Source of the DNA: a bacterium | GTDB taxonomy: Bacteria; Patescibacteriota; Minisyncoccia; Phycocordibacterales; Phycocordibacteraceae | Length of the DNA: 64,000 nucleotides | Direction of reading: 5' to 3' | NCBI GenBank assembly: GCA_021778295.1 | Contig: JAJYCP010000002.1 | Span: forward strand, 3,027 to 67,026 | The notes under the pieces: model-generated | What the model saw: only the letters and a program-made list of their open reading frames with translations | Told to the model about the DNA's origin: nothing | Databases searched by the model: none | Translations under genes and position numbers: made by a program | Shown: one piece after another, positions 1,953 through 64,000 of the stretch | Layout of the letters: each line of letters begins with the position of its first letter | Numbering within the stretch: the stretch's first letter is position 1

Positions 1953-3737
1953 CTAATTCGCGCTCATGAAGCCGCCTGCCTGAATCTCCCATAGTTTTTT
2001 ATAAAGATTACTTTCCTGCGCAAGGAGTTCCCTATGCGAGCCGGAAAGGACGACCGCGCCCGCTTCCATCACAATGATGCGGTCCATTTTCATCACGGTC
2101 GACAAACGGTGCGCGATGGCAATGACGGTTTTGCCCTGCATAAGCCGCGTAAACGCATCTTGAATGAGCGACTCGGATTCGGAATCGAGACTCGATGTCG
2201 CCTCGTCAAGAACGAGAATCGGCGCGTTTTTGAGAATCGCCCGCGCGATCGCCACGCGCTGGCGCTCGCCGCCGGAAAGCTTTACGCCGCGTTCGCCGAC
2301 CATCGTCTCAAATCCTTCCGGATAGCGGCTGATAAACTCATCGCAGTGCGCTTGTCGCGCCGCTTCGAAAACTTCTTCGTCGGTCGCCCCTTGACGGCCA
2401 TAGCGGATGTTATCCATAAGCGAACGGTGAAAGAGCATCGGTTCTTGCGGAACGAACGCTATTGCAGCGCGCAGGCTCTCCTGAGTCACGCCGGCTATGT
2501 TCTGCCCGTCGATGCGGATGGCCCCGCTCGTAACATCGTACAGACGCAAGAGCAGTTTTGTGATGGTCGACTTCCCCGCACCGGAAGAACCGACCAGCGC
2601 CACTTTCTCATGCGGCGGTATGGAAAGGTCGAAATCAAGAAGCACCGCCTGATTGGCGTGATACTCGAAATGAACATGGTCAAAGACAATCGCTCCTTCG
2701 CCCACATGAAGAGGTTGCGCGCCCGCGACATCCTCAATTGCGTGCGACGTGTCGATAATATCGAGCATTTCAGTCGCATCGGCGAACGCGTCATAGAGCT
2801 GGCGCATGTTGCGCCCGATGCCCCAAATACGATTCATAAGGCCGAGAATGTAGATCTGGATAAGTACGAAATCTCCCACCGTCACGACACCCTGTTCCCA
2901 GAGCAGTACCGCGCCCGCAAGCAATGCCACCTCTATTCCGATGGCGAAAAGCCCCTGCACGCCGTAGACCCACGCATCGGCATCCCATGCGCGCTTTGTC
3001 GCCGCATACCAGCGTGCGACCGCGTCCCGAAACCGCATCTTCTCGTAGGGAGCGGCCGCGAAAGTGGTGATGGTCGAGTGGTTGAGCACCGTGTCGGAAA
3101 GGAAACCGGTTACCTTGCTATCTTCCTCGGTGCGCGCGGAGCGGAGCGGCTGGCGCCACAACACCATCCTGAACTGGATGTACACGAATGCGACCGTCCA
3201 TACGAAAAGCCCGGCGCCAAGCAGCACGCTCCGCGCCGAGAGTACGCCGATGACGCCGATTGCGAAAACAAAGGCGGGGAAAAAATTGAGCAGCAGGTTA
3301 TCGAGCACTTGTTCGAAGGAACGCGCGTAACGCGTTACGCGGCGCGTGAGCGTGCCGGTGAAGTTCGAAATGAAAAACTCATGCGCGTGGCCGAGCAGAT
3401 AACCGAAAGCGTTTTCATACAAATCGGCCATCACTTTCGCCTCCATGCGCCCGATCGAGAGCATGCGCACGCGTTGCCCGATCCACCCGACAAAATTTAC
3501 CGCAGCAAAAATGATGAGCACGACGAAAAGCGCTTGCACGGTGCCCGAAGAAGGCGTACCGCCGGAGAGCAGATCGATGAACTGCCGCAAATACAGCGGC
3601 GCGACGACCGCAGCCGCTTCAATACCGACTGTTGCGATGACCGCGATGCTTAAGGATTTCGGATAGACGAGTGCGGCTTTGCTGTATGCGCGCAACACAG
3701 GCCACACGCGTGCTGTTCTCTTCTTATCGGAAGGCAT
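1953..3737 (-). CDS. ABC transporter, fused permease/ATP-binding protein (MsbA/multidrug-exporter type)
   Basis: 594 aa. The N-terminal half is a six-helix type membrane domain. The C-terminal half carries Walker A GSSGAGKST, signature LSGGERQR and Walker B ILVLDEATS. Confidence 0.9.
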   Translation of the reverse strand: MPSDKKRTARVWPVLRAYSKAALVYPKSLSIAVIATVGIEAAAVVAPLYLRQFIDLLSGGTPSSGTVQALFVVLIIFAAVNFVGWIGQRVRMLSIGRMEAKVMADLYENAFGYLLGHAHEFFISNFTGTLTRRVTRYARSFEQVLDNLLLNFFPAFVFAIGVIGVLSARSVLLGAGLFVWTVAFVYIQFRMVLWRQPLRSARTEEDSKVTGFLSDTVLNHSTITTFAAAPYEKMRFRDAVARWYAATKRAWDADAWVYGVQGLFAIGIEVALLAGAVLLWEQGVVTVGDFVLIQIYILGLMNRIWGIGRNMRQLYDAFADATEMLDIIDTSHAIEDVAGAQPLHVGEGAIVFDHVHFEYHANQAVLLDFDLSIPPHEKVALVGSSGAGKSTITKLLLRLYDVTSGAIRIDGQNIAGVTQESLRAAIAFVPQEPMLFHRSLMDNIRYGRQGATDEEVFEAARQAHCDEFISRYPEGFETMVGERGVKLSGGERQRVAIARAILKNAPILVLDEATSSLDSESESLIQDAFTRLMQGKTVIAIAHRLSTVMKMDRIIVMEAGAVVLSGSHRELLAQESNLYKKLWEIQAGGFMSAN

Positions 3738-12899: not shown

Positions 12900-13184
12900 A
12901 TGGCTGATATCCAGTTCGACGAAGAACAGCAATACTCGGCCAGCCGCTCCGAAGTAGCACAAAAGCCATTTCTTCTCCGTCTCGTGCTCTCGACTGGTCT
13001 CGTGCGCACCAGGCGGGGCGCTGAGTACGTGCTTATCGGTGCCATCCTCGCTTGTCTCGTGCTCACGGTTCTCATCCTCATCCATACCGGTAGCAGCGCT
13101 CCCGGCCTCTCGCCGGCAGACATACAACGCATCACGGACCTCCAGCAGGGCGTACGCCCTTCCGCACCACCCTATGGCCCGTGA
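12900..13184 (+). CDS. hypothetical single-TM protein, upstream partner of a pilin-like gene (paralog of 31994..32287)
   Basis: MADIQFDEEQQ... then the TM YVLIGAILACLVLTVLILI. It shares architecture and an N-terminal IxFDEE motif with 31994..32287, and overlaps the next gene by 11 nt. Confidence 0.55.
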   Translation: MADIQFDEEQQYSASRSEVAQKPFLLRLVLSTGLVRTRRGAEYVLIGAILACLVLTVLILIHTGSSAPGLSPADIQRITDLQQGVRPSAPPYGP

Positions 13185-13692
13185 CCGCGGCTTTACGCTC
13201 ATCGAGCTTCTTGTCGTCATTGCCATCATCGGTATCCTCTCCTCGGTCGTCCTGGCTGCACTCAACACCGCCCGCGGGAGGGCGAACGATGCCCGACGTC
13301 TCGCGGATATGCATTCAATCCAGGTCGCGCTTGAGCTCTACTACAGCAAGAACAACGCGTACCCGTACTCGAATAATTCCGGCTGCGGCGGATGGGAGTC
13401 AACCGGCAGCGACGCGACGAATGGCAATTTTATCGCCGCGCTCACAGCCGATGGCGACCTGCCCAAAGGCGTCCGGGATCCGAATCCAGGAACGGAAAAT
13501 TCCTGCGGTAACTATGCATACTATTACTACCCACCGAGCTATGCCGGCTGTGTGGAGGGGTTCTATGTGCTCGGTATTCGTACCACTGATGGGTACGGCG
13601 CGAGTCCATATCCCGGGAGTCCCGGTTGGAGCTGTCCGACCCGGAACTGGCAAGTCGAGTTCAGCTGGGTTACAGGCGGTTACGGACAGTAA
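13174..13692 (+). CDS. type IV pilin-like protein (N-terminal methylation motif), orphan copy
   Basis: MARDRG|FTLIELLVVIAIIGILSSVVLAALNTAR is a class III signal peptide plus hydrophobic helix. The C-terminal domain has four Cys. Confidence 0.8.
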   Translation: MARDRGFTLIELLVVIAIIGILSSVVLAALNTARGRANDARRLADMHSIQVALELYYSKNNAYPYSNNSGCGGWESTGSDATNGNFIAALTADGDLPKGVRDPNPGTENSCGNYAYYYYPPSYAGCVEGFYVLGIRTTDGYGASPYPGSPGWSCPTRNWQVEFSWVTGGYGQ

Positions 13693-13848
13693 ATGTGCCG
13701 ACCCGGCTTGGGGCGCGGGGCCATACCATAATGGAGGGATACGCTATCGCTATCTACGGCACTTCGGGATAATTTACAGACATGAGGACCGGAATCGGAC
13801 TGAAAATATGTTGCCCGCGTTAAAAACGGTACGGGATCGAAATCAATT

Positions 13849-14220
13849 CTATTTTTTCTCAAATTCAAGACAGACCGAATTGATGCAGTAACGCTTTCCT
13901 CCCTTTTCTGCTGGACCATCATCAAAAACGTGACCGAGATGCGCACCACACGTCTTGCAGAGAACCTCAGTCCGTGACATTCCGAGACTGGGGTCTTCTT
14001 TTAAAACAACGTGCTCAAGATTCGCTGGATCGGTAAAGCTCGGCCAGCCAGTGCCAGAATCAAACTTTGTATCAGACGAGAAAAGTTCGGTGCCGCAAAT
14101 CGCACATTTATATATTCCTTTCTCGTGATTGTTCACAAACGCGCCCATAAACGGAGCTTCTGTTCCGCCTTGTCGCGCAACACGTCGAAGTTCTGGCGAG
14201 AGTTCATTATCTTTTTTCAT
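13849..14220 (-). CDS. msrB: peptide-methionine (R)-S-oxide reductase
   Basis: GIYKCAICGTELFSSDTKFDSGTGWPSF...VLCKTCGAHLGHVFDDGP...RYCINS. Start moved to ATG 14220. Confidence 0.9.
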   Translation of the reverse strand: MKKDNELSPELRRVARQGGTEAPFMGAFVNNHEKGIYKCAICGTELFSSDTKFDSGTGWPSFTDPANLEHVVLKEDPSLGMSRTEVLCKTCGAHLGHVFDDGPAEKGGKRYCINSVCLEFEKK

Positions 14221-15134: not shown

Positions 15135-15546
15135 GTTGCGGGGGCCGGAATCGAACCGGCGTCTGGAGGTTCTTTTACACCTGCTGTTTCCAACTGGAAT
15201 GGACTATACCACAATCCCATAAGGACTCTCCCATTATAGTCTCTGAACCTTTCCAGTCTCACTTTCCAGAGTTGCTTTTGCTCGGACTATACGTCCTCGC
15301 TTCCGCACTCTGTTGTTCGCCTCCCCCATAAGAATGGGGGGAACCCCCGATAAATGAAACTAGACTTGGCTGCTGATTGCCGAATCTTCTTGTTTTTTAG
15401 GCGTTCGCGCTCATCCTTTCGGATCACGCTGTAGCACAAGAAGCTCTAACGGTATTCCAGCAATTTAGAGAGTTTTTCCACTATCCGTTACCGGATAGGG
15501 TCACGTTTTCACATGAGCCTCCCGAGGTACCTCTCCTCTACCCCGC
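15135..15546 (-). tRNA. initiator tRNA-fMet (anticodon CAT) interrupted by a group I intron; exons 15512..15546 and 15135..15170
   Basis: The joined exons give A-GCGGGG-TA-GAGG-AGAGGTA-CCTC-G-GGAGG-CTCAT|AA-CCTCC-AGAC-GCCGG-TTCGATT-CCGGC-CCCCGCA-A, a full cloverleaf. The 3' half CCGGCCCCCGCAA equals the E. coli tRNA-fMet 3' end. The 1:72 mismatch (A x A) and A11:U24 are initiator hallmarks. CCA is not encoded. Confidence 0.8.
15171..15511 (-). ncRNA. group I intron (IC3-like, no ORF) in the anticodon loop of tRNA-fMet
   Basis: The 5' exon ends in U (CAU|) and intron nt 9-11 GUG can pair with CAU including a G.U pair (P1). Other elements: P2 CUAUCCG-GUAA-CGGAUAG (GNRA loop); P3 CUCUCU/GGAGAG; J3/4 AAA; P4 UUGCUG/CAGCAG followed by AGCCAAG; GGAAUACCGUUAG (compare GGGAAACCUAAG of IC3 introns); CAGAGACUAUA...UAUAGUC (P7). 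The last intron nucleotide is G. Confidence 0.75.
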
Positions 15547-19996: not shown

Positions 19997-20521
19997 CTAG
20001 TAGTGGGCGCTGATGCCGCGGGACACGAAGCGCGTTCCTCCGGGACTTGCCACCGTAGCGCACGAAACATTGTAGCCTTGCGAGAAGAGATATGTCGTGC
20101 CGGCACCGAGCGCCGGCTTATAGACCGTCACATCCGCACAATGCGCTCCCGAATCGAGCGAGAGGCGCGTGGCGATGACCCACTGGCTTGAAGTATAGGA
20201 GAGCACGGTCGCAGAGACCGGCGCAGTGGTACCACAGGACATGAGGGGCGCTGTGGTGGTCGCGGTTGGAGGATAGGCGAAGAGATTCTGCTGCTGATCG
20301 GCATACAAGGCGCATTCAAGCGCGCTGTCGGCGGCATAAAACGCATACTGGGATTCGATGGCCGAAGAAGCGAGCACTTGTTGCTTGTACGCAAGAGAGC
20401 CGAGCGTGAGACCGATACTCAACATCACCGACATGAAAATGAGAGCCATGAGGAGCGCGAACCCTCGTCGAGACGCAGAGGGGCGCGTTTGCGCGATGTT
20501 ATTTTTGTTTTTCATTGCCAT
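19997..20521 (-). CDS. minor pilin-like protein (PilX-like hydrophobic N-terminus)
   Basis: MAMKNKNNIAQTRPSASRRGFALLMALIFMSVMLSIGLTLGSLAY... Last gene of the pseudopilin run. Start moved to ATG 20521. Confidence 0.6.
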   Translation of the reverse strand: MAMKNKNNIAQTRPSASRRGFALLMALIFMSVMLSIGLTLGSLAYKQQVLASSAIESQYAFYAADSALECALYADQQQNLFAYPPTATTTAPLMSCGTTAPVSATVLSYTSSQWVIATRLSLDSGAHCADVTVYKPALGAGTTYLFSQGYNVSCATVASPGGTRFVSRGISAHY

Positions 20522-21282
20522 GACGTAAGGTGGTCCATTACCGTAACCGTGTACGGGATACCGTGGAAACTCCACGTCACAGTCGAGACGATGCGCTCCT
20601 CGGTAGAAGAGACCGTGAACGCTTGTATCGTGCGCGTGAACGGCTGCAGTACCGCGCCATTGCCGCTCTGCTCGGTGTAGTAGTTCGTCGTGCCGTTGTT
20701 CGCGAGATAGAGTGGCGTACAAGCGCTGCCGGTACAAGGGCTGAGTGAGAAACCGCTTCCGGTGCCCATCGGAAGCGTCGGATCGAGCGTGCAGGTCATC
20801 GAACGGCATTGGGTAATGGCCGCGCTGTCCGTGCCGGTAAGAAAGTCGGTCCAGGCGGCGCTTGAGGTGTTTGTACCGCCCGCCTGATACGCGAGGAGAT
20901 ATTCATCATCGCGCATAGCGCGCACGTACTCGACGCCTTCTTGTGCGAGATAGGAAGCGGTGAGCTGGTAGCGTGCGCCTTCTGCGGCAACGATAGCGCG
21001 ATCCGCGCCGAACAAAGGCCCCGCAACCGCAAGCGCAAGGATGCTCACGGCAATCATGGCTTCGATAAGCGTGAAGCCGCGGAGCTGGATTTGCTCCCTG
21101 AAGCTTATTTCAAAACTCCCGCGAAGGGTATGCGGCAGAAAGGAGTACGCCGTCTTTTTCTGCTGAAAAAGCGGCTCGCTCTCGCCCCGTCGGGCTCCGA
21201 GAGCCTCTTTCTGCCGCATACCCTTCGCGTCGCCGGAAGGTTTGAGATGGGTTTCAGACTCGTAGAGTGTTTTCATACTCAT
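20512..21282 (-). CDS. type IV minor pilin-like protein with a repeat-element-encoded extended leader
   Basis: Mature part G|FTLIEAMIAVSILALAVAGPLF. ATG 21282 overlaps the stop of the upstream pilin gene (ATGA). Residues ~9-62 of the leader are encoded by the MITE-like repeat at 21098..21257. No ATG/GTG/TTG exists in frame between the repeat and the G|F cleavage motif. Confidence 0.65.
   Translation of the reverse strand: MSMKTLYESETHLKPSGDAKGMRQKEALGARRGESEPLFQQKKTAYSFLPHTLRGSFEISFREQIQLRGFTLIEAMIAVSILALAVAGPLFGADRAIVAAEGARYQLTASYLAQEGVEYVRAMRDDEYLLAYQAGGTNTSSAAWTDFLTGTDSAAITQCRSMTCTLDPTLPMGTGSGFSLSPCTGSACTPLYLANNGTTNYYTEQSGNGAVLQPFTRTIQAFTVSSTEERIVSTVTWSFHGIPYTVTVMDHLTSWQ
21098..21257 (-). 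repeat. MITE-like palindromic repeat, copy 1 (left terminus degenerate)
   Basis: ...ATTTCAAAACTCCCGCGAAGGGTATGCGGCAGAAAGG...CCTCTTTCTGCCGCATACCCTTCGCG...GTTTGAGATGGGTTTCAG aligns along its full length with 45639..45796, 41131..41274 (inverted) and 53310..53468 (inverted core). Confidence 0.85.
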
Positions 21283-21797
21283 ATGTCGGAGCCGCGCATC
21301 GTCGCGCCGGTCTCAATGGTAAACGGTTCTGTTTTCCCCGGGCCGGAAGAGACGGTGCCCGAAACGATGATGGTAACGCGCGCTTGTTGGTAATCGGTCG
21401 GCGCCGGATGCGTACCAAACGCATAGAACGTCAAGGACGAAATAGTCACCGAGGGGTCGGTAAGCGTGCTTGCCGTATTGCCCGTCATTTTTTGGACCGC
21501 GGATCCGACGAGACTGTAGGTGACCGGCGTTCCGTTATCGTCCACGAGAGAAAAACTGCTCGCGCCATTTGGACAATCGCCCAGGCCGCCGCAGTTATAG
21601 TTCGTTCCGGTACGGATGCTGCGCGTCATGCTCTCAAGGGCGAAAGAAAGGTTGTCGATACCGGTGGAAATTGCCTGCGCTTGCCGATTGGCGCCGATCA
21701 GAATGAGGTAGGCGCCCGAAGCCAGCAGCATAATAAGCGAAAAGAGTCCCATCGCGACAATGAGTTCGATAAGCGTGTAGCCTTTGGAGCGGATCAT
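21279..21797 (-). CDS. type IV minor pilin-like protein
   Basis: MIRSKG|YTLIELIVAMGLFSLIMLLASGAYL. ATGA overlap with the upstream gene (start 21797; ATG 21803 is an alternative). Confidence 0.8.
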   Translation of the reverse strand: MIRSKGYTLIELIVAMGLFSLIMLLASGAYLILIGANRQAQAISTGIDNLSFALESMTRSIRTGTNYNCGGLGDCPNGASSFSLVDDNGTPVTYSLVGSAVQKMTGNTASTLTDPSVTISSLTFYAFGTHPAPTDYQQARVTIIVSGTVSSGPGKTEPFTIETGATMRGSDI

Positions 21798-22459
21798 GGG
21801 CATGAGAGGGCGGTCGCGTTTATTTCTCCCGACGCGCCCACTGAAACGAAACGCGAACCGCCCTGCGGGGAGGAAAGAGTGAGGCATGCTTGCGTTACGG
21901 GAGATGACGCTGAATACGCGCCATTTACGCTCATGAACGGATCGGGGTTCGGACGCGAGAAAATAATATCGAGCGTCGAGAGCGCTTGGTTGCCGGAATT
22001 CGCGCACGACCACGACAGCGTGTTCGGCGTATAGGCGCAGAAATCACTCACTGTAATACCGTTCCCGAGCGTATAGCCGGTAACTTTCTCGCCCTGATTC
22101 GCCTCATATACGCAGTCGCCCGGGCGGGCGTTCGGAGAGGTCGGGTCGGCGATCGGGTGACAGCTTGTGGAGGAGGGCGGCGGGTAGGTGTCGGCAAAAA
22201 GCGTAAAGGAACCCGGCGTCGCTTTTTGGAAATCAAGGCCATATCCTGCGTTTGCTACGGTCCCGGCCACGCGATTGCCCAGGCCATACGTCTCGGCGCT
22301 GCGGAGCGTGAGCGCCACATCGTATGCGGTATTCGCAAGGATGAGCGTTTTATTGAAAGAGCTTTGGCTGGTCAGCACGACTGCGGTGATGATGATCATA
22401 ATCGCCAACACGACCAAAAGTTCGATTAGCGTAAAGCCACGATGATGAGAGGGTTCCAT
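21794..22459 (-). CDS. type IV minor pilin-like protein (GspH/FimT-like)
   Basis: MEPSHHRG|FTLIELLVVLAIMIIITAVVLTSQSSF. Confidence 0.8.
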   Translation of the reverse strand: MEPSHHRGFTLIELLVVLAIMIIITAVVLTSQSSFNKTLILANTAYDVALTLRSAETYGLGNRVAGTVANAGYGLDFQKATPGSFTLFADTYPPPSSTSCHPIADPTSPNARPGDCVYEANQGEKVTGYTLGNGITVSDFCAYTPNTLSWSCANSGNQALSTLDIIFSRPNPDPFMSVNGAYSASSPVTQACLTLSSPQGGSRFVSVGASGEINATALSCP

Positions 22460-23187
22460 TGAGTAAAGTACATGAGGAGGAAACCGGCGGCGAGGAAGGG
22501 TGCAAACGGTACCTCAACTCCCATTCTAGAACCTCGCGGTCTCCGTGCCAACACGACTATCCCTATAACCGCGCCGATCCAAAACGATGCAATGAACCCG
22601 GCGGGCGCGGCGGGGCCCGTAAGGAGCGCGAGACCGAACACAAATGGCGCGTCGGCGAGTCCCATCGCCCGTCCGCGCGAGAAGAAGTTGATGAGCGCCA
22701 AAAAGAGCGCGAAAGCGCCGGCGACCATAAGCGAGACGCCCAGCGCGCTCGTATCGTCCGCCAGGAAAAACCCCGCACAAGCGCTCGCAAGGACGAACGC
22801 TCCGAGGAGCGCGAACGGGAGTATCTGATGAGCAAGGTCGTAGAGGACGAGTGCGAGGAGCATCGAAAGCGAGAGGAGCATGAACGGCAGTGCGGCGGTA
22901 AAACCGATCTTGAGATATGCAAGCGCGAAAAGCCCTCCCAAGAGAAATTCCGCGAGGGGTCCGAGAAGTGAGAGGCGCGCGCTACAGCACCGCGCGCGGG
23001 CGCCAAGCGCGACGTACGAGATGATCGGGAAGAGTGACAATACCGAAAGCGGCGTGCCGCAGGCATCGCAACGGGAGCGTCCCGTGAGAAAACTCTGGCC
23101 GGTATGGAGACGCGCGACAAGCACGCCGAGGAAACTCGCTACGATAGCTCCGAGCACAAAAAATGAGATCGCAACAAGAAAAAGCAT
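22426..23187 (-). CDS. pilD: prepilin peptidase (A24 family)
   Basis: 253 aa, polytopic. N-terminal Cys pair region SRCDACGTPL...ISY, with conserved Asp-containing loops (LVLYDLAH, GLADAPF). Confidence 0.85.
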   Translation of the reverse strand: MLFLVAISFFVLGAIVASFLGVLVARLHTGQSFLTGRSRCDACGTPLSVLSLFPIISYVALGARARCCSARLSLLGPLAEFLLGGLFALAYLKIGFTAALPFMLLSLSMLLALVLYDLAHQILPFALLGAFVLASACAGFFLADDTSALGVSLMVAGAFALFLALINFFSRGRAMGLADAPFVFGLALLTGPAAPAGFIASFWIGAVIGIVVLARRPRGSRMGVEVPFAPFLAAGFLLMYFTQWNPLIIVALR

Positions 23188-23201
23188 GCATGCATCATAA
23201 C

Positions 23202-23230
23202 AGAAGCCCGCGGCACAGCCGCGGGCTTCT
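23202..23230 (-). terminator. hairpin between the major pilin gene and pilD (attenuator/terminator candidate)
   Basis: AGAAGCCCGCGG-CACAG-CCGCGGGCTTCT, a 12-bp GC-rich stem 21 nt downstream of the pilin stop. Confidence 0.5.
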
Positions 23231-23250
23231 TACGCGCGCACCGAAAAGAT

Positions 23251-23703
23251 TTATTGACAGGCCGTGAGAGTGCCGAGTGCGGCGGTTTCTTGCTTTGCGG
23301 TGCCGGTCGAGTCGACGCACCAGTACGTACCGCTTACTGCCGTCAACTGAGCCGATACCGCATAGGCAGACGGTGTGCTGTTACACACAACGTTTGCGGC
23401 TGCGCCCGAGGCATTCTGAGCACCCGTAACAGCCTTAACAATAGTCGCATCAGACCAGAGAGTGCCCGTCGTCGCGGCGCAGGAAGCCGATTGGGCTGCG
23501 CCATAGCTGTTGGCGCCTGCACCGCCGTAGTAGATCTCGGCCTGAGTCTGGATGGTCGAGAGGTCGGATTGGATAGCAGCGTCGTTGCCTTTCTGGCGGG
23601 CGGTGTTGAGCGAAGCGAGCACGACCGCTGAGAGGATGCCGATGATGGCGATCACGACGAGAAGTTCGATGAGGGTGAAACCTTGGGAACGATTTTTGTA
23701 CAT
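23251..23703 (-). CDS. pilA: type IV pilin (probable major pilin)
   Basis: MYKNRSQG|FTLIELLVVIAIIGILSAVVLASLNTARQKGNDAAIQSDL... 150 aa with a C-terminal Cys pair. Sits directly downstream of pilC and is followed by a hairpin. Confidence 0.85.
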   Translation of the reverse strand: MYKNRSQGFTLIELLVVIAIIGILSAVVLASLNTARQKGNDAAIQSDLSTIQTQAEIYYGGAGANSYGAAQSASCAATTGTLWSDATIVKAVTGAQNASGAAANVVCNSTPSAYAVSAQLTAVSGTYWCVDSTGTAKQETAALGTLTACQ

Positions 23704-23812
23704 AATATGTTGTATGCGGCTAATAGCACCATTGTACGCCTAGAGAGGTCTGCTTAGGAACAGAGGTGTGGATAGTTTCTCCGACACCGTTTTGCGGGGT
23801 TAAGGCCGACTA

Positions 23813-25018
23813 CTATATTGCTCCGGCCAGATTATAAATCGGGAGCAATACCGCGGCCAAGAGCGTACCTACGCCCACGCCCAAGAGGACTATCATGATA
23901 GGTTCGATGAGACCGACGAGCGTATCGACCGCATTGCTCACTTCACGGTTGTAGAATTTGGCGAGCGTAATGAGGATTTTCCCGAGCTCGCCGGTTTCTT
24001 CGCCGACTTTCGTCATTGCGACCATGATACCCGGCATTTCCGGGTGCTTGCCGAAAGCATCGGATATCGAGGACCCCCCTTTCACATCCGCGGTCACTTC
24101 AGAAAGTATCTTTGCATAGACGGAATTGCCCACGACAGATGCCGAGATATCGAGCGCTTGGACAACCGAAACCCCGGAAATGAGCATGGTGGAGAAATTG
24201 TCTGCGATGCGCGCAAGGTAGAGTTTTTTGTAGAGATCGCCGACATAGGGCACCGAAATTTTCAGACCGTCGAGAATGAGCTTGCCGCGTTCGGTCTTCC
24301 CAAGCTGCCACACGTAGAAACCGAGCGCGACAAGCGCGATGAGCAGGAAGATGCCGTAGTTGACAAGAAAATTTGAGAAGCCGATGACAATACGGGTATA
24401 AAGCGGCACGGGTTGCCCGGAATCGATGAGGACGGCGCTTATTTTCGGAATGACAAGCGTGAGCATGAGCGCCATCACGCCGAAGAACACTGCGATGACA
24501 AATGCGGGATAGATGAGCGCATTCTCAGCCTTGCTCATGACATCATAGGAGCGATCAAGATAGTCGGCGAGGTAAATGAACGTTTCCGACAATTTGCCCG
24601 ACTCCTCTCCCGCACGGACCATGTTTACGTAGAACGGCGCGAAGACTTTTGGGTGGCGGGCGAGCGCTTTGCTTATCGGGCTTCCGCCCTGGATGTCATC
24701 ACCGACCGTAGAAAGAACGGCCGCGAGTTTTTTATTGTCGACTTCGGCGGCGAGGAGGCGGAAGACGCGCAGCGCGGAGACCTGTGCCTCAAACAGGGTT
24801 GATATCTGCCGCGAAAGGATGACGATTTCTTTGTTGGAAATCCGGTTGAACAATGGGATTTCAAGCTCGAGCAATGAACGTTTTTCCGAAGACTCAATGA
24901 CCGATATGATGAGATTGCGCCGCTGGAGCGAGGAAACCGCGACTTCCTGAGAGGGAGCCTCGATGGTCCCTTCCCGTTCGTGCCCGTCCTGGTCGATCGC
25001 TCGGTATTTGAAGAGCAT
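23813..25018 (-). CDS. pilC: type IV pilus platform protein (GspF/PilC family)
   Basis: 401 aa with two T2SS-F repeats and three TM segments (e.g. ...LSRQISTLFEAQVS...VGEETGELGKIL). Confidence 0.9.
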   Translation of the reverse strand: MLFKYRAIDQDGHEREGTIEAPSQEVAVSSLQRRNLIISVIESSEKRSLLELEIPLFNRISNKEIVILSRQISTLFEAQVSALRVFRLLAAEVDNKKLAAVLSTVGDDIQGGSPISKALARHPKVFAPFYVNMVRAGEESGKLSETFIYLADYLDRSYDVMSKAENALIYPAFVIAVFFGVMALMLTLVIPKISAVLIDSGQPVPLYTRIVIGFSNFLVNYGIFLLIALVALGFYVWQLGKTERGKLILDGLKISVPYVGDLYKKLYLARIADNFSTMLISGVSVVQALDISASVVGNSVYAKILSEVTADVKGGSSISDAFGKHPEMPGIMVAMTKVGEETGELGKILITLAKFYNREVSNAVDTLVGLIEPIMIVLLGVGVGTLLAAVLLPIYNLAGAI

Positions 25019-25023
25019 AGTTT

Positions 25024-26085
25024 TTAGAGATAGCGTTCAAAAGTTTTCGGATCCATCGCGTGCTCGTAGGCATGCTCGACCGTCACCTCGCCCCGGTGCA
25101 CGAGATCCGCAAGCATACGATCAAGGTCGATCATGCCTTCCTGCGAAGAAGTTTGGATGACCGCGCTTATCTCGTGAGTCTGCGCTTCCCGGATAAGGTT
25201 CGCCACTGCGTTGTTGTTAATCAGAAGTTCGTATGCCGGAATGAGCCCGCCGGACACCCGCGGAATGAGCCGCTGGGAGAAAATACCCGCGAGAGAACCA
25301 GCCAGCTGCACGCGAACCTGTCCCTGCTGTTCGGATGGGAACATGTCGATGATACGATCGATGGTCTGTGCGGCGTTGTTGGTATGGAGGGTGGAAAAGA
25401 CCAGGTGGCCGGTCTCGGCGGCGGTCACCGCCGAAGAGATGGTCTCGTAATCGCGCATCTCGCCGACCATGATGACATCGACGTCCTCGCGGAAGGCGCT
25501 CTGGAGCGCCGTGCCGAAATCCGGTGCATCGATATGGACTTCGCGCTGATGGATGAGGGACTTTTTCGGCGTAAAAAGGTATTCCACCGGATCCTCGATG
25601 GTGAGGATGTGCTCTGCGCGCGAATCATTGATGCGGTTTATCATCGCAGCGAGCGTCGTTGATTTGCCCTGCCCCACCGGCCCCACAACAAGGAAGAATC
25701 CTTGCTCGCGTTGCGTAAAGACTTCGAGCACGGAAGGCAGGTTGAGTTCGGTAAAAGTGCGGACAGCATGCGGTATGAGCCGGAACGCCAAAGCGGTCCC
25801 GCCCTGCACGCGGTAGCCGTTCACGCGGAAACGCATGTCCGCCCGGTGCGCATAGGAAAGGTCGATGGTCTGATTCTTCTGAAATGAATCCCACCGCTCC
25901 GGAGGCACGATGCTTTTGAGCATCGCTTCAGTCTCCTCAGCGGTGAACGCGGGATATTTGGTAAGAGGAATCAATGTACTGGAAACACGGATTACCGGCG
26001 ATCCGCCGGCAAAAAGATGCAGGTCGGAGCCGCCTTCGGTAACAACGATATTGAGAAGCTCCTCGAGACGTTTTTCGGCAGCCAT
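25024..26085 (-). CDS. pilT: type IV pilus retraction ATPase (PilT family)
   Basis: GSDLHL, Walker A GPVGQGKST, Asp box ILTIEDPVEY, Walker B DVIMVGEMRD and His box TGHLVFSTLHT. Start moved to ATG 26085. Confidence 0.9.
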   Translation of the reverse strand: MAAEKRLEELLNIVVTEGGSDLHLFAGGSPVIRVSSTLIPLTKYPAFTAEETEAMLKSIVPPERWDSFQKNQTIDLSYAHRADMRFRVNGYRVQGGTALAFRLIPHAVRTFTELNLPSVLEVFTQREQGFFLVVGPVGQGKSTTLAAMINRINDSRAEHILTIEDPVEYLFTPKKSLIHQREVHIDAPDFGTALQSAFREDVDVIMVGEMRDYETISSAVTAAETGHLVFSTLHTNNAAQTIDRIIDMFPSEQQGQVRVQLAGSLAGIFSQRLIPRVSGGLIPAYELLINNNAVANLIREAQTHEISAVIQTSSQEGMIDLDRMLADLVHRGEVTVEHAYEHAMDPKTFERYL

Positions 26086-26089
26086 ATGA

Positions 26090-26497
26090 TCAGCGCGGCT
26101 CTTCCGCGCGGGATGTGCTCGTTTCAATGATGCGCACGGTCTCGGCTAGCACTTCAGAAGGAATAGCGGATGCTTTGATGATGTAGCCGTCGGCAACGAG
26201 TTCTTTTGATTTCTCGAAATCGGAATCTTGGCCCTGATTCGAGAGGATGATAATCTTCGCGCCTTTCGCGAGACCTTCCTTTCGTATCGTTTCGAGCGTT
26301 TCAAAACCGTTCATGCCGGGCATGATGATGTCGAGCAGGATGGCGTCGGGCGTGACCGCGCCTTCTTTGCGCAGCGCGGCGAGGAGATCTTCGCCGCCGC
26401 CAAACGCGCTCACTTCGTGACCGGCATTCTTGAACTTAACGGCATAGAGATCAAGCAAGAATCTGTCATCATCAACGAGATACACGCGGTATGCCAT
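26090..26497 (-). CDS. stand-alone response-regulator receiver domain (CheY-like)
   Basis: 135 aa. VYLVDDD...ILLDIIMPGMNGFE...KIIILSN...K has the acidic pocket, a phospho-acceptor Asp (LLDI), and T/S and K positions present. No output domain. Confidence 0.85.
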   Translation of the reverse strand: MAYRVYLVDDDRFLLDLYAVKFKNAGHEVSAFGGGEDLLAALRKEGAVTPDAILLDIIMPGMNGFETLETIRKEGLAKGAKIIILSNQGQDSDFEKSKELVADGYIIKASAIPSEVLAETVRIIETSTSRAEEPR

Positions 26498-39967: not shown

Positions 39968-41134
39968 ATGCTCGACGCGATGCGCCCTCGTGTTATTCTT
40001 GCTGTCGGGAATTTTTTCTTTTCGCTTTTCGCGACTCTTATCGTCTATATCCTGCTTCCCTACCTCTCCTCATTCATGCCGGAGGCGTATGCCGGACTTG
40101 TAATCGCTCTCGGCGCTCTCGGCGCGGTTCTATTTTTCCCCTATCTCCCGCGTTTGGTTGCGCGTTATGGCGCGCAACAGCTCGCGCTTGTATTTGCAAT
40201 CGCGGAAATGGTCGCACTCTTCGCGCTTGCGGCATCTCCCGGCGCTATCGCCGGCATCCTGCTTATCGCCGTCACCGTAGCACTCCAGCCTTTTCTGTAC
40301 TATGAACTTGATCTGCTCCTTGAAGCGACCATCGCGCAGGAGGGTACGACCGGCCGCGTGCGGGCGACTTTCCTCACCGCATGGAACATCGCGGCGCTTG
40401 CGGCGCCGCTTCTTATGGGTGCGCTTCTCGCGCATTCAAATGACTACAGCCGGGTATTCCTGGCCGCTTCAGCGGCGCTCGTACCGTTTATCGTCCTCTT
40501 TGCCGCCCGCTCCCTCCCTAAAGGTAAACCCCCAAAACTATCACGCATGCGCGACGCATTCTTTTGCGTGTTACATGACCGTGATCTCGCATCGGTTACG
40601 TTCGCTCATTTTCTCTTGTATCTCTTTTACGTTTGGACGCCGCTCTACGTTCCGGTGTATCTCCACGATGCGCTTGGCATACCCTGGTCAAGCCTTGGCA
40701 AAATGTTCTCGATAATGCTCATACCCTATGTGCTCGTCGAATATCCGGCGGGGTGGATCGCCGATCGGTTTCTCGGCGACAAAGAGCTCATGTTTGCAGG
40801 ATTTCTCATTGCGGGCGGCGCACTCGCTTCACTGGGCGTGCTCTCCACGGCTTCTCCGCTCATCCTGATTCTCGGTATCCTTATCGTTTCGCGCATCGGT
40901 GCGGCACTCGTTGAAAGCATGACCGAAATACATTTTTTCCGGCGCGTCTCCGAACAAGACGTGAATTCGGTGAATATATTCCGCGGTATCTGGCCCTTGG
41001 CGGATCTTGTCGCGCCGATCGTGGGAAGTTTTATTCTTTTTTTCGGTAATTATCAAATCCTCTTCGTACTCACCGGCGGGTTCATCGCCATCGTCGGTGT
41101 GGCAACGACACTCTTCATAAAAGATTTCCGCTAG
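39968..41134 (+). CDS. MFS transporter
   Basis: 388 aa with about 12 TM segments and a typical MFS hydrophobic periodicity. Its stop TAG lies inside the CTAG terminus of repeat copy 2. Confidence 0.8.
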   Translation: MLDAMRPRVILAVGNFFFSLFATLIVYILLPYLSSFMPEAYAGLVIALGALGAVLFFPYLPRLVARYGAQQLALVFAIAEMVALFALAASPGAIAGILLIAVTVALQPFLYYELDLLLEATIAQEGTTGRVRATFLTAWNIAALAAPLLMGALLAHSNDYSRVFLAASAALVPFIVLFAARSLPKGKPPKLSRMRDAFFCVLHDRDLASVTFAHFLLYLFYVWTPLYVPVYLHDALGIPWSSLGKMFSIMLIPYVLVEYPAGWIADRFLGDKELMFAGFLIAGGALASLGVLSTASPLILILGILIVSRIGAALVESMTEIHFFRRVSEQDVNSVNIFRGIWPLADLVAPIVGSFILFFGNYQILFVLTGGFIAIVGVATTLFIKDFR

Positions 41135-41274
41135 GGTGGTCCGTCTCAACTCCCGTTCGGGCATGCGGCAGAAAGAGGCTTACGGAGCCCGACGGGGCGA
41201 GTACGAGCCGCTTTTTGAGCACAAAAAGACGGCGTACTCCTTTCTGCCGCATGCCCGAGTGGGAGGGGTTCTAG
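41131..41274. repeat. MITE-like palindromic repeat, copy 2 (inverted relative to copies 1 and 3)
   Basis: CTAGGGTGGTCCGTCTCAAC...GCATGCGGCAGAAAGAGG...CCTTTCTGCCGCATGC...GGGGTTCTAG. Flanked by CTAG at both ends. Fills the gap between two convergent genes exactly. Confidence 0.85.
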
Positions 41275-45638: not shown

Positions 45639-45796
45639 CTAGAACCCCATTTCAAAACGCCGCTCGGGTATGCCGCAGGAAAGGTACGCCGTCTTTTTCT
45701 GCTGAAAAAGCGTCTCGCTCTCGCCTCGTCAGGCTCCGAGAGCCCTTTCCTGCGGCATACCCCTCGCGTCGCCTAGAGTTTTGAGATGGGGTCTAG
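45639..45796. repeat. MITE-like palindromic repeat, copy 3 (best-preserved; CTAG at both ends)
   Basis: CTAGAACCCCATTTCAAAAC-GCCGCTCGGGTATGCCGCAGGAAAGG-...-CCCTTTCCTGCGGCATACCCCTCGCG-...GTTTTGAGATGGGGTCTAG. Nested inverted repeats, intergenic. Confidence 0.9.
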
Positions 45797-45816
45797 ATGC
45801 CGTTTCGTATTACATC

Positions 45817-46233
45817 TTACATCTGGGGCTGTGGGCCTGAAGAGTGCACCGGCGGCATGACGTTTCGCATATCATCCTTGCCGTATTTCCCGGCGGCAAA
45901 TATAAGCACACCAACGATGAGATTGAGCCAGTTCGAAGCCCAATTCGTACCGGCAATGCCCAAGAGCGTCCCGCCGATAGCAGGGACAGTGAAGACCCCT
46001 ATGAGACCAAGGAGAAACGTGATTACGCCGATGAGTTTGAGCCATAGTACGGAACTCTCGCTGGCCCAAAAGGCGACCGCAAGCAAGATCGCGCCGAGAA
46101 TGATGTGGATGAGATTGTGCGCGCCGTCTGCTACGAATAGCGCATTGGCGCCAATGAGCGGATTTGAAATAAACCCGAGAAGCCCGAGGAGTACCAAGAT
46201 GGCACCGAATATGAGGGAGAGCGTTTTCGCCAT
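45817..46233 (-). CDS. DUF4383-like small membrane protein
   Basis: MAKTLSLIFGAILVLLGLLGFISNP....ADGAHNLIHIILGAILL with four TMs. ATG 46242 is an alternative start. Confidence 0.65.
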   Translation of the reverse strand: MAKTLSLIFGAILVLLGLLGFISNPLIGANALFVADGAHNLIHIILGAILLAVAFWASESSVLWLKLIGVITFLLGLIGVFTVPAIGGTLLGIAGTNWASNWLNLIVGVLIFAAGKYGKDDMRNVMPPVHSSGPQPQM

Positions 46234-46443
46234 ACAAGCCATTAGGCTGCTAAAGCGGCTCCGAAAGGCGGAGCGCTACGATAAAGCATACCCCTTTCAG
46301 GCAGGGAGAGGGCCGCACATGCCGCTGCCTGTGCATAATGATGATGCCATGTGACGACACGCGCGCGTCACAGGCGCGCGTGTAGCACCATTCGCGTTAT
46401 CTTCGGGAACCATAGAGCCGCTCACTAGGGGCGTCTGCAAAAG

Positions 46444-53309: not shown

Positions 53310-53468
53310 CTAAAACCATTTCAAAACCCCCGCTTCCCCGCGAGGGGTATGCGACAGAAAGAGGCTCTCGGAGCCCGACGGGGCGAGAGCGAGCCGCTTT
53401 TTCAGCAGAAAAAGACGGCGTACTCCTTTCTGTCGCATACCCGAGCGGGGGTTTGGAATTGGGTTCTA
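53310..53468. repeat. MITE-like palindromic repeat, copy 4
   Basis: CTAAAACCATTTCAAAAC...GGGGTATGCGACAGAAAGAGG...CCTTTCTGTCGCATACCC...GGAATTGGGTTCTAA. Its right terminus contains the ndk stop codon (CTA at 53466..53468). Confidence 0.85.
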
Positions 53469-54050
53469 ATCGCCGTGCCGTTTGTAGCGGTGGAGAGTGC
53501 TCTTCCCGAACCAGTGTTCGATTTCGTGCGCCGCCTCCTCGGGCGTCTCGGATGCATGAACGATGTTTGCGACCGCGCGTTTTTCGGCATTCGCGATGGC
53601 GGGAGAATCGTTAGAAAAATCTCCACGAATGGTACCCATATCGGCCTGATACGGCATCGTCGGACCGCAGATCTTGCGCACCATATCGACCGCATGCGTG
53701 CCCTCGACCACCATCTTCACCAGAGGAGCGGAGAGCATGTAATCGACGAGCCATTTCCGTATTTCGGGACCGATCTCTTCCGGCGCGGTCGTACCGAAAT
53801 CTTCCATCGCATCAAACTGATACTTTTCATAGGTAGCGAGCGTCTTCTCGCCGAGACGCTTCACCCATGCGGCATCCTTCGGGTAATGCGTATCGATCTG
53901 ATCAAACGTCGGCTGAAACATCTCGAGAGCGACGATCTTGAGATCGCGCTGCTCGAAACGCTTGATAATCTCGCCGACAAGGCCCTTCTTTACTCCGTCA
54001 GGCTTTATCATCACGTAGGTGCGCTCTTCTTTCGGATTCTTATGTGCCAT
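53466..54050 (-). CDS. ndk: nucleoside-diphosphate kinase (long form with an internal insertion)
   Basis: ERTYVMIKPDGV..GLVGEII.RFE...LKIVA and IRGDF......N.VHASE. 194 aa, against about 140-150 aa for typical Ndk. Confidence 0.85.
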   Translation of the reverse strand: MAHKNPKEERTYVMIKPDGVKKGLVGEIIKRFEQRDLKIVALEMFQPTFDQIDTHYPKDAAWVKRLGEKTLATYEKYQFDAMEDFGTTAPEEIGPEIRKWLVDYMLSAPLVKMVVEGTHAVDMVRKICGPTMPYQADMGTIRGDFSNDSPAIANAEKRAVANIVHASETPEEAAHEIEHWFGKSTLHRYKRHGD

Positions 54051-63930: not shown

Positions 63931-64000
63931 TTAGAACCCATTTCAAAACTCCAGGCGACGCGAGGGGTATGCCGCAGGAAAGGGCTCTCGGAGCCTGACG
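63931..64000. repeat. MITE-like palindromic repeat, copy 5 (truncated by the window end)
   Basis: TTAGAACCCATTTCAAAACTCCAGGCGACGCGAGGGGTATGCCGCAGGAAAGGGCTCTCGGAGCCTGACG matches the reverse complement of the right half of copy 3. Confidence 0.8.

Follow-up and report, generated by a model that had tools for sequence, protein, structure and literature searches.

The DNA under study, 64,000 nucleotides of contig JAJYCP010000002.1 from an uncultured bacterium of the Patescibacteriota (below, the window; GC content about 56%), carries on its reverse strand a type IV pilus cluster (19997-26127), and within this cluster a copy of a short palindromic repeat lies inside the leader-coding region of a minor pilin gene. 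The cluster comprises genes for an ATPase (T2SSE, 25024-26127), PilC (T2SSF, 23813-25018), a major-type pilin (23251-23703) and a PilD-like prepilin peptidase (22426-23187), all on the reverse strand. The PilD-like protein strongly matches the A24 N-terminal (methylase) domain PF06750 (E = 8e-21), and its gene is followed by three pilin genes and then by a PilX-like gene; LigA, GatC and GatA are found downstream of the cluster. The gene in question (20512..21282, reverse strand) encodes a PilV-like minor prepilin of 256 amino acids (aa), with residues 1-69 as the predicted leader and residues 70-256 as the mature part. The cognate machinery, i.e., the PilD-like gene, PilC, the ATPase and at least four pilins, lies within 6 kb.

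The ATG of this gene (21282-21280) and the TGA (21281-21279) of the minor pilin gene upstream (21279..21803, reverse strand; MPMIRSKG↓YTLIE, the arrow marking the cleavage site here and below) share bases as ATGA, as the original prediction had pointed out from the sequence, and the stop of the gene likewise overlaps the start of the next one, so that the operon appears to be translationally coupled throughout. Many ATGA overlaps were seen across the window, and a Shine-Dalgarno-like motif precedes just 6 of its 46 gene starts (a crude count, made with the starts of the longest open reading frames (ORFs)); initiation led by Shine-Dalgarno motifs seems to matter little in this organism.

A homologue search with the target protein returned 641 homologues, which their sources name prepilin or PilV and ascribe to Candidatus Paceibacterota, Kaiserbacteria or Patescibacteria; we place the host in the Paceibacteria/Kaiserbacteria part of the Patescibacteria. 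Residues 68-88 match PF07963 (24 bits vs. a cut-off of 21.2) and TIGR02532 (19.7 vs. 16.3), and the PilV model TIGR02523 matches the protein weakly. The prepilin cleavage/N-methylation motif located in this way (21019..21081, reverse strand; RG↓FTLIEAMIAVSILALAVAG) bears the features of a class III signal peptide, namely Gly, Phe and Glu at positions −1, +1 and +5 and then a stretch of about 20 hydrophobic residues (...LRG↓FTLIEAMIAVSILALAVAGPLF), and the predicted N-methyl-Phe mature N-terminus is FTLIEAMIAVSILALAVAGPLFGADR. In the sibling pilins the Pfam motif begins at residues 4-5, and that of TIGR02532 at residue 7 in the sole sibling scanned with this model. The AlphaFold2 model of the target consists of helices 72-87 and 90-134 and then a beta-sheet head with a predicted local distance difference test score (pLDDT) above 90. 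A Foldseek comparison of the model with the PDB gave no match at E ≤0.001, the best hits being phage coat proteins at E >0.03, and the globular head is therefore not tied to any solved minor pilin. From the motif and the neighbouring machinery the product is predicted to be a type IV prepilin, and the abnormal length of its leader gives no reason to doubt this.

The leader-coding region spans 69 codons (21076..21282, reverse strand), the codon of Gly69 (21076-21078) being the last. It begins with codons 1-8 (MSMKTLYE) and the first base of codon 9 (21258..21282, including the ATG 21280-21282), continues with the repeat copy c21k (160 nucleotides (nt), 21098..21257, reverse strand), which encodes residues 9-62, and ends with the flank GGAGCAAATCCAGCTCCGCGGC (...EQIQLRG; 21076..21097, reverse strand), which the empty allele L091, described below, lacks. 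The same start, ATGAGTATG, is kept in the loci L009, L093 and L094 and in distant orthologs. As originally claimed, the frame passes through the whole repeat (21098-21257) free of stops, and the cleavage motif lies far into the ORF, although cleavage is predicted between G69 and F70 (...EQIQLRG↓FTLIEAM) and not near residue 74, giving a 69-aa leader. An in-frame codon scan also bore out that no ATG, GTG or TTG stands between the repeat and the G↓F site: counted from the start codon to Gly inclusive, such codons are found only 69, 67 and 48 codons before the cleavage. The internal ATG that had been noticed within the repeat is present (Met22, 21217..21219, reverse strand, in a repeat arm) and is the only canonical start past codon 3. 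We rejected Met22 as a start that would serve the alleles in general: it is out of frame in L094 and L010, and GAAGGG stands only about 1 nt from this ATG.

The leader of the window is hydrophilic (grand average of hydropathy (GRAVY) −0.88, net charge +4), and the AlphaFold2 model gives it no secondary structure (pLDDT about 42-53), the pilin helix setting in at residue 72. When counted from the sole start common to all alleles, the 69 residues fall outside the described range of 6-26 aa (PMC4471445). Gene callers assigned 198 to 256 aa to near-identical versions of this gene.

Allelic series and selection on the mature pilin

Homologue search and cluster look-up, followed by DNA retrieval and alignment, yielded a series of alleles whose mature proteins are more than 90% identical. 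The ortholog comparison proposed earlier as a check did reveal an empty site: L091 and L092 carry no element (ATATGATGAATATGAAAGGATTT), and the same ATGA-coupled start opens a leader of 6 aa (MMNMKG↓F). In L093, an internal deletion of 132 nt has left just the two element termini, and the leader measures 25 aa (MSMKTICEPRTHFKMDSEKQPRLRG↓F). The window allele bears the element in orientation A; L094-L096 bear it in the same orientation with the core in another frame (+2 nt in the left arm, −2 nt in the right arm), the leader again being 69 aa long. In L010 and L007 the whole element is inverted in place, giving a 67-aa leader. A different insert, judged from the protein, is found in P0125 (NCBI MHB1769862.1), with a 31-aa leader (MKRFTQHQSSVRSVIDVRVAAASSKPNFGAG↓F), and the leader of L009, an ortholog at 74% identity, begins at the same ATGAGTATG start and has 18 aa. 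A metagenome scan that took 25 bases of the mature N-terminus as its pattern, aimed at further close alleles, returned one unrelated pilin.

In each allele whose DNA was examined, the coupled ATG is in frame with the G↓F site, with zero stops between them, and in L010 it is the sole in-frame canonical start. The leaders of all alleles have GRAVY values of −0.8 to −1.2, net charges of +3 to +9, Arg at −2 and Gly at −1. One and the same element is read as three different peptides (in two frames and on the opposite strand) among sister alleles, and the leader peptide sequence itself appears to be without constraint, with only frame and openness being retained. The four element-bearing lineages are about equidistant (synonymous divergence, dS, 0.31-0.40), and the empty lineage is the outgroup to them (dS 0.47-0.67), thus indicating that the insertion is older than their split; after it, they appear to have diverged through inversion, deletion and changes in the arms. 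The element cores match differing genomic subtypes: by reading of the alignment, the L010 core corresponds to c41k, another copy in the window (see below), and the window variant P0121 has a c41k-type TTAC, which suggests gene conversion from other repeat copies.

At least 10 contigs, from separate ENA assemblies and from NCBI metagenome-assembled genomes, code for exactly this 256-aa protein, with 0-1 DNA differences over 771 nt, and the inverted allele is found on at least eight contigs, one of them of 171 kb. An assembly error at the repeat, which had been named as a possible refutation, is excluded by these recurrences of the protein. We also considered L008 as a state with an intergenic element and rejected it: this locus is a 1.5-kb megahit contig with a foreign upstream gene, and the same allele is normally coupled in L094 (63.9 kb). 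In L008 (400-600), the unrelated upstream gene is fused to the pilin precisely at the left end of the repeat, and the junction is probably due to chimeric assembly or to recombination at the repeat.

The mature part of the gene (561 nt) gave pairwise ratios of non-synonymous to synonymous divergence (dN/dS) of 0.05-0.07 in all comparisons, at dS values of 0.31-0.67, and its length is equal across five lineages, with no frameshifts or stops. The lineage-specific changes (synonymous:non-synonymous) numbered 9:1 in the window lineage, 6:0 in L010, 15:2 in L094, 8:1 in L093 and 24:1 in the empty L091. Constraint is not relaxed in the window and L010, both of which lack any start near the cleavage site, and this purifying selection leads us to reject inactivation of the gene, which the original prediction had offered as the alternative. 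Its preferred claim, that the element was inserted into the leader and is tolerated there, appears to hold, being supported by the empty site, the retained frame and the purifying selection.

The repeat family and the leader modules of other Paceibacteria

Five copies of the repeat are present in the 64 kb, with pairwise identities of 74-85% and lengths of 137-161 nt as extracted; no match of the core is expected by chance (expectation 0). The architecture consists of outer terminal inverted repeats (CTAGAACCCATYTCAAAAC / GTTTTGAAATGGGTTCTAG), near-perfect inner arms around GGGTATGCGGCAGAAAG and an asymmetric core, with no coding capacity for a transposase. The palindromic copy c21k, which resembles a MITE (miniature inverted-repeat transposable element), has the termini CTGAAACCC...TTCAG and perfect internal arms of 23-27 nt around GGGTATGCGGCAGAAAG. 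The other four copies are all intergenic. Copy c41k (about 41131..41274, forward strand) lies between convergent genes, and its terminal CTAGs provide the stops of an MFS gene (41132-41134) and an HhH-GPD gene (41271-41273). Copy c45k (about 45640..45796, reverse strand) lies between divergent genes and directly adjoins the ATG of the ORF 45797-46354; the terminal TAG of c53k (about 53310..53469, forward strand) is the stop of the NDK gene (53466-53468), and c64k (63932..64000, forward strand) is cut by the window end. By its structure (less than 300 bp, no transposase, terminal inverted repeats, dispersed copies), the repeat can be classed as a MITE.

A TA (within CTAG, CTAA or TTAG) flanks each of the three complete intergenic copies on either side, as well as the visible end of c64k. 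The use of TAG as a stop and the abutting ATG would fit insertion into the TA of stop codons; since the flanking TA sits in a palindromic CTAG, a duplication is not separable from the inverted repeat. The empty pilin allele lacks, along with the element, about 35 nt of flank. A search of the window with the terminal-repeat sequence for a partner autonomous insertion sequence matched only the short copies.

The original prediction held that the same peptide could be read over the other copies, and this is so for c53k and c41k, which are open, and not for c45k, which has stops in six of six frames. Counted over six frames, c53k has 2 stop codons vs. 6.3 expected (P ~0.006; five of the six frames open), and c21k has 3 vs. 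8.1 expected (P ~0.005). Because the repeat family is stop-poor, an open frame in a single copy is less remarkable. As RNA, a 206-nt stretch containing c21k folds at −94.3 kcal/mol (z = −8.2). Rfam gave no RNA family over the repeat, and a promoter/terminator scan found nothing promoter-like, terminator-like or resembling an integration host factor (IHF) site over the element.

In the distant orthologs L014, L021 and L038, the same ATGA coupling leads into a 5-aa leader (MxMKG↓F), and in several lineages the leaders reach 37-39 aa and are built of 84-nt (28-codon) modules. These modules open with FTTK(R/Q), close just before a regenerated G↓FT and sometimes stand in tandem. They are of two types, ...NSDFSFANERREQ... 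and ...AERQT...EASAGR.AVRG, and each holds a small hairpin with a few compensatory changes. The sites are L011:1713-1802 and 2956-3045, L013:2926, L016:1620-1700 and 2977-3069, L018:2977-3078, L019:1428-1517 and 2839-3010, and L025:2926; a second prepilin gene, directly after pilD, also has such modules in its leader. Among about 80 orthologous loci, nine of nine instances of the ‘FTTKR’ modules are located in the leaders of prepilins, all in frame and free of stops, and the modules may represent a leader-targeting mini-element family. Long leaders without this repeat, which the original prediction had counted as evidence against itself, thus do exist; they are made of other repeated in-frame modules, so that the interpretation is broadened rather than refuted. 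Moreover, the 3′ end of the type A module has a homologue in the post-element flank of the window, GGAGCAAATCCAGCTCCGCGGC, so that the MITE probably landed within an earlier module.

Elsewhere in the window, a 113-nt inverted match (78%) joins 13180-13292 to 23579-23691, that is, an opposite-strand ORF (13181-13891) to the 5′ end of the major-type pilin gene, which suggests that this ORF is a second pilin-like gene about 10 kb away sharing the N-terminal coding region. A group I intron match in Rfam (15144-15524, reverse strand; 58.6 bits with the full-length model) is separated by 18 nt from a short stretch matching the tmRNA 3′ end (model positions 346-363, E ~1e-3). ARAGORN found no tmRNA in the window; the region 15144-15524 may be an intron-interrupted ssrA gene.

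Proposed translation of the element and alternatives

The explanation that we regard as probable is that translation of the repeat yields part of a long cytoplasmic leader, hydrophilic and net positive, which the neighbouring prepilin peptidase would then remove. The insertion, the empty site, the maintenance of the frame, the purifying selection and the nature of the leader were observed here, and from the sequences we infer that translation starts at the coupled ATG and that PilD cleaves the product. A non-autonomous palindromic MITE-like element of about 160 nt would have landed in the leader-coding part of the PilV-like minor pilin gene, in a leader already slightly enlarged, the insertion being probably nested. 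Ribosomes ending the upstream pilin would restart at the overlapping ATG, read through the element and melt its hairpin, thereby yielding a prepilin with a disordered basic N-terminal extension of 69 residues. The prepilin leader is cytoplasmic by the positive-inside rule, and the peptidase cuts at the cytoplasmic face right after the final Gly (PMC4471445, PMC10191384). Since the class III leader would stay cytoplasmic and be cut on this face after the invariant Gly, the extension would never need to cross the membrane, and the mature pilin would be the same as in the empty-site strains. All of the long leaders (hydrophilic, net positive, with an R-G end) fit this picture. The sole constraints on the inserted DNA would be that it is stop-free, a multiple of three in length, and hydrophilic and basic in its coding; the leader may then act as a safe harbour for small mobile DNA within a compact overlapping operon.

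Several points weigh against this explanation. The family is stop-poor and the inversion keeps the length, which leaves about three truly independent frame tests, or roughly (1/3)^3. A hairpin of −94 kcal/mol within the ORF could hinder translation or attract RNase cleavage. In the PilD-like protein (22426-23187), the peptidase domain PF01478 aligned over its full length with 23 bits, below the Pfam cut-off of 26.5, and no NCBIfam model matched; we take the protein for a divergent prepilin peptidase. The reviews, which give the range cited above (PMC4471445), do not describe a prepilin peptidase cutting a 69-aa leader. Finally, L094 has a GTG and L093 an ATG 11 codons before the G↓F site, so that translation with a short leader, starting at the element terminus, is possible there, and such a start may have been the original mode.

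Extended to the window, a start at the element terminus would make the upstream frame incidental, translation beginning at the ATA of codon 59 (Ile59, 21106..21108, reverse strand) or the ATC of codon 65, with a leader of 5-11 aa. The element consensus has an ATG at exactly the codon-59 position, in frame (GAAATGGGG in c45k). At this position, L094 and L008 have a GTG with GGGGGA 5 nt upstream, which was picked as the start by the gene caller in L008, and L093 has its ATG; the ATA of the window stands seven bases past GGGAG. However, the same position reads ATA in the window and GCG in L010, which has no near-cognate substitute downstream, and in both of these lineages the mature part is under strong purifying selection despite the missing terminus start. 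Downstream initiation would not require the coupled ATG to be in frame in every allele, as it is, and the rarity of Shine-Dalgarno-like motifs in the window (6 of 46 starts) leaves GGGAG with little weight. A weak non-canonical start is thus possible for the window and cannot explain L010, and we consider this alternative unlikely. Somewhat less probable still is the co-option of the element as an RNA regulator, with the hairpin attenuating, pausing or processing the mRNA and thereby setting the dose of the downstream minor pilins; translation would then serve as a means of opening the hairpin, so that this is compatible with a translated leader. The extreme stability of the hairpin, its placement between coupled genes and the arms of the window copy, which are more perfectly complementary than those of the other copies, speak for such a role, and Correia elements of Neisseria are known to be co-transcribed and processed. 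Nevertheless, the empty-site and remnant alleles manage without the element, its orientation and subtype vary freely, and no terminator-like T tract is found over it.

That the insertion killed the gene and turned it into a pseudogene or a remnant that is no longer translated seems very improbable. No canonical start lies close to the cleavage site, a highly stable hairpin stands inside the frame, and the 69-aa leader is beyond the described range (PMC4471445), but a dN/dS of 0.05-0.07, with nine synonymous changes to one non-synonymous on the window branch, a mature length of 561 nt free of frameshifts and stops in five lineages at dS 0.3-0.67, and a downstream gene coupled to the stop of this very ORF all argue for a functional product. 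We give hardly any credence to an assembly artefact at the repeat or to an invertible phase-variable switch. The 160-nt repeat exceeds the assembler k-mer size, and L008 does look chimeric or recombinant at the element, with a different upstream gene joined at its left end; against this stand the at least 10 separate contigs with the identical 256-aa protein and the at least eight with the inverted allele. As for a switch, both orientations occur in one sample (ERZ27237563), but in genes 35 synonymous substitutions apart (dS 0.31), i.e., in distinct lineages, and the frame is open in both, so that inversion would have no on/off effect. An inverton was therefore rejected, the orientations being fixed in separate lineages.

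Relation to known elements and meaning for Patescibacteria

Correia elements are abundant repeats of about 100-155 bp with terminal inverted repeats, flanked by TA and co-transcribed as hairpins. The window repeat, likened to them here by description, also has TA at the ends of its copies; unlike them, it shows no promoter or IHF site over the element. To our knowledge, Correia elements are not known as a translated part of a leader. Rickettsia palindromic elements (RPEs) are mobile palindromes of about 100-150 bp inserted in frame in protein-coding genes and retained there as additional stretches of peptide, each family encoding a conserved open peptide (PMC10969869). Just like them, the element studied here is a palindromic repeat in frame within a functional gene with the frame retained; in contrast to them, the insert would lie in a cleaved leader and be absent from the mature protein, no peptide is conserved, and the phylum is different. 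The likeness is one of description, and a relation in sequence is not expected. Coxiella QMITE1/2 and intragenic ERIC and BOX elements overlap gene ends, adding residues or supplying stops (PMC5896051, PMC10969869). The other window copies resemble QMITEs in giving TAG stops to the MFS, HhH-GPD and NDK genes; c21k differs, as the QMITE, ERIC and BOX cases are C-terminal extensions or hypothetical ORFs. A term search of PMC10969869 and PMC5896051 found no case of a MITE inside a signal peptide.

Long prepilin leaders have been described for type IVb pilins, for Flp1 with 26 aa, for S. sanguinis with 18 aa and for one archaellin with 26 aa (PMC4471445, PMC10191384, PMC12448462), 26 aa being termed ‘unusually long’ (PMC12448462). 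The leaders reported here resemble them in being hydrophilic, ending in Gly and being suited to an aspartic peptidase on the cytoplasmic face, their cleavage being predicted; they differ in their 67-69 aa, about 2.6 times the longest figure in those sources, and in consisting of mobile DNA rather than of a conserved leader sequence. In-frame MITE insertions are thus already established (RPEs, QMITEs, ERIC, BOX; PMC10969869, PMC5896051). What appears to be new is an insert in a cleavable class III signal peptide, the leader length deduced for it and the natural allelic series.

If the precursor is processed, its class III signal peptide would be the longest by a wide margin, and prepilin peptidase and insertion by the signal recognition particle/Sec route would be largely indifferent to the sequence before the −2/−1 residues. 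The empty, 25-aa, 67-aa and two 69-aa alleles, standing before an almost identical mature pilin, amount to a natural experiment on this point. Annotation is affected as well: a pilin predictor that looks for the motif no farther than about 30-40 residues from the start would overlook genes of this kind or give them a wrong start. More generally, it is conceivable, though we would not yet bet on it, that the prepilin leaders of Paceibacteria are a recurrent landing pad for small palindromic mobile elements, the 160-nt MITE here and the 84-nt modules elsewhere, which would have evolved towards read-through by having few stops and lengths divisible by three, with leaders of about 70 residues still being substrates of the peptidase; if so, the peptidase accepts essentially any cytoplasmic N-terminal extension. 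In a bolder extension, the released basic leader peptides or the hairpin RNAs would have functions of their own. A central part in the host-attached life of Patescibacteria is ascribed to type IV pili (PMC11623550, PMC10633639), and in the compact overlapping operons of these ultrasmall bacteria mobile DNA would be able to persist inside a peptide segment that is discarded.

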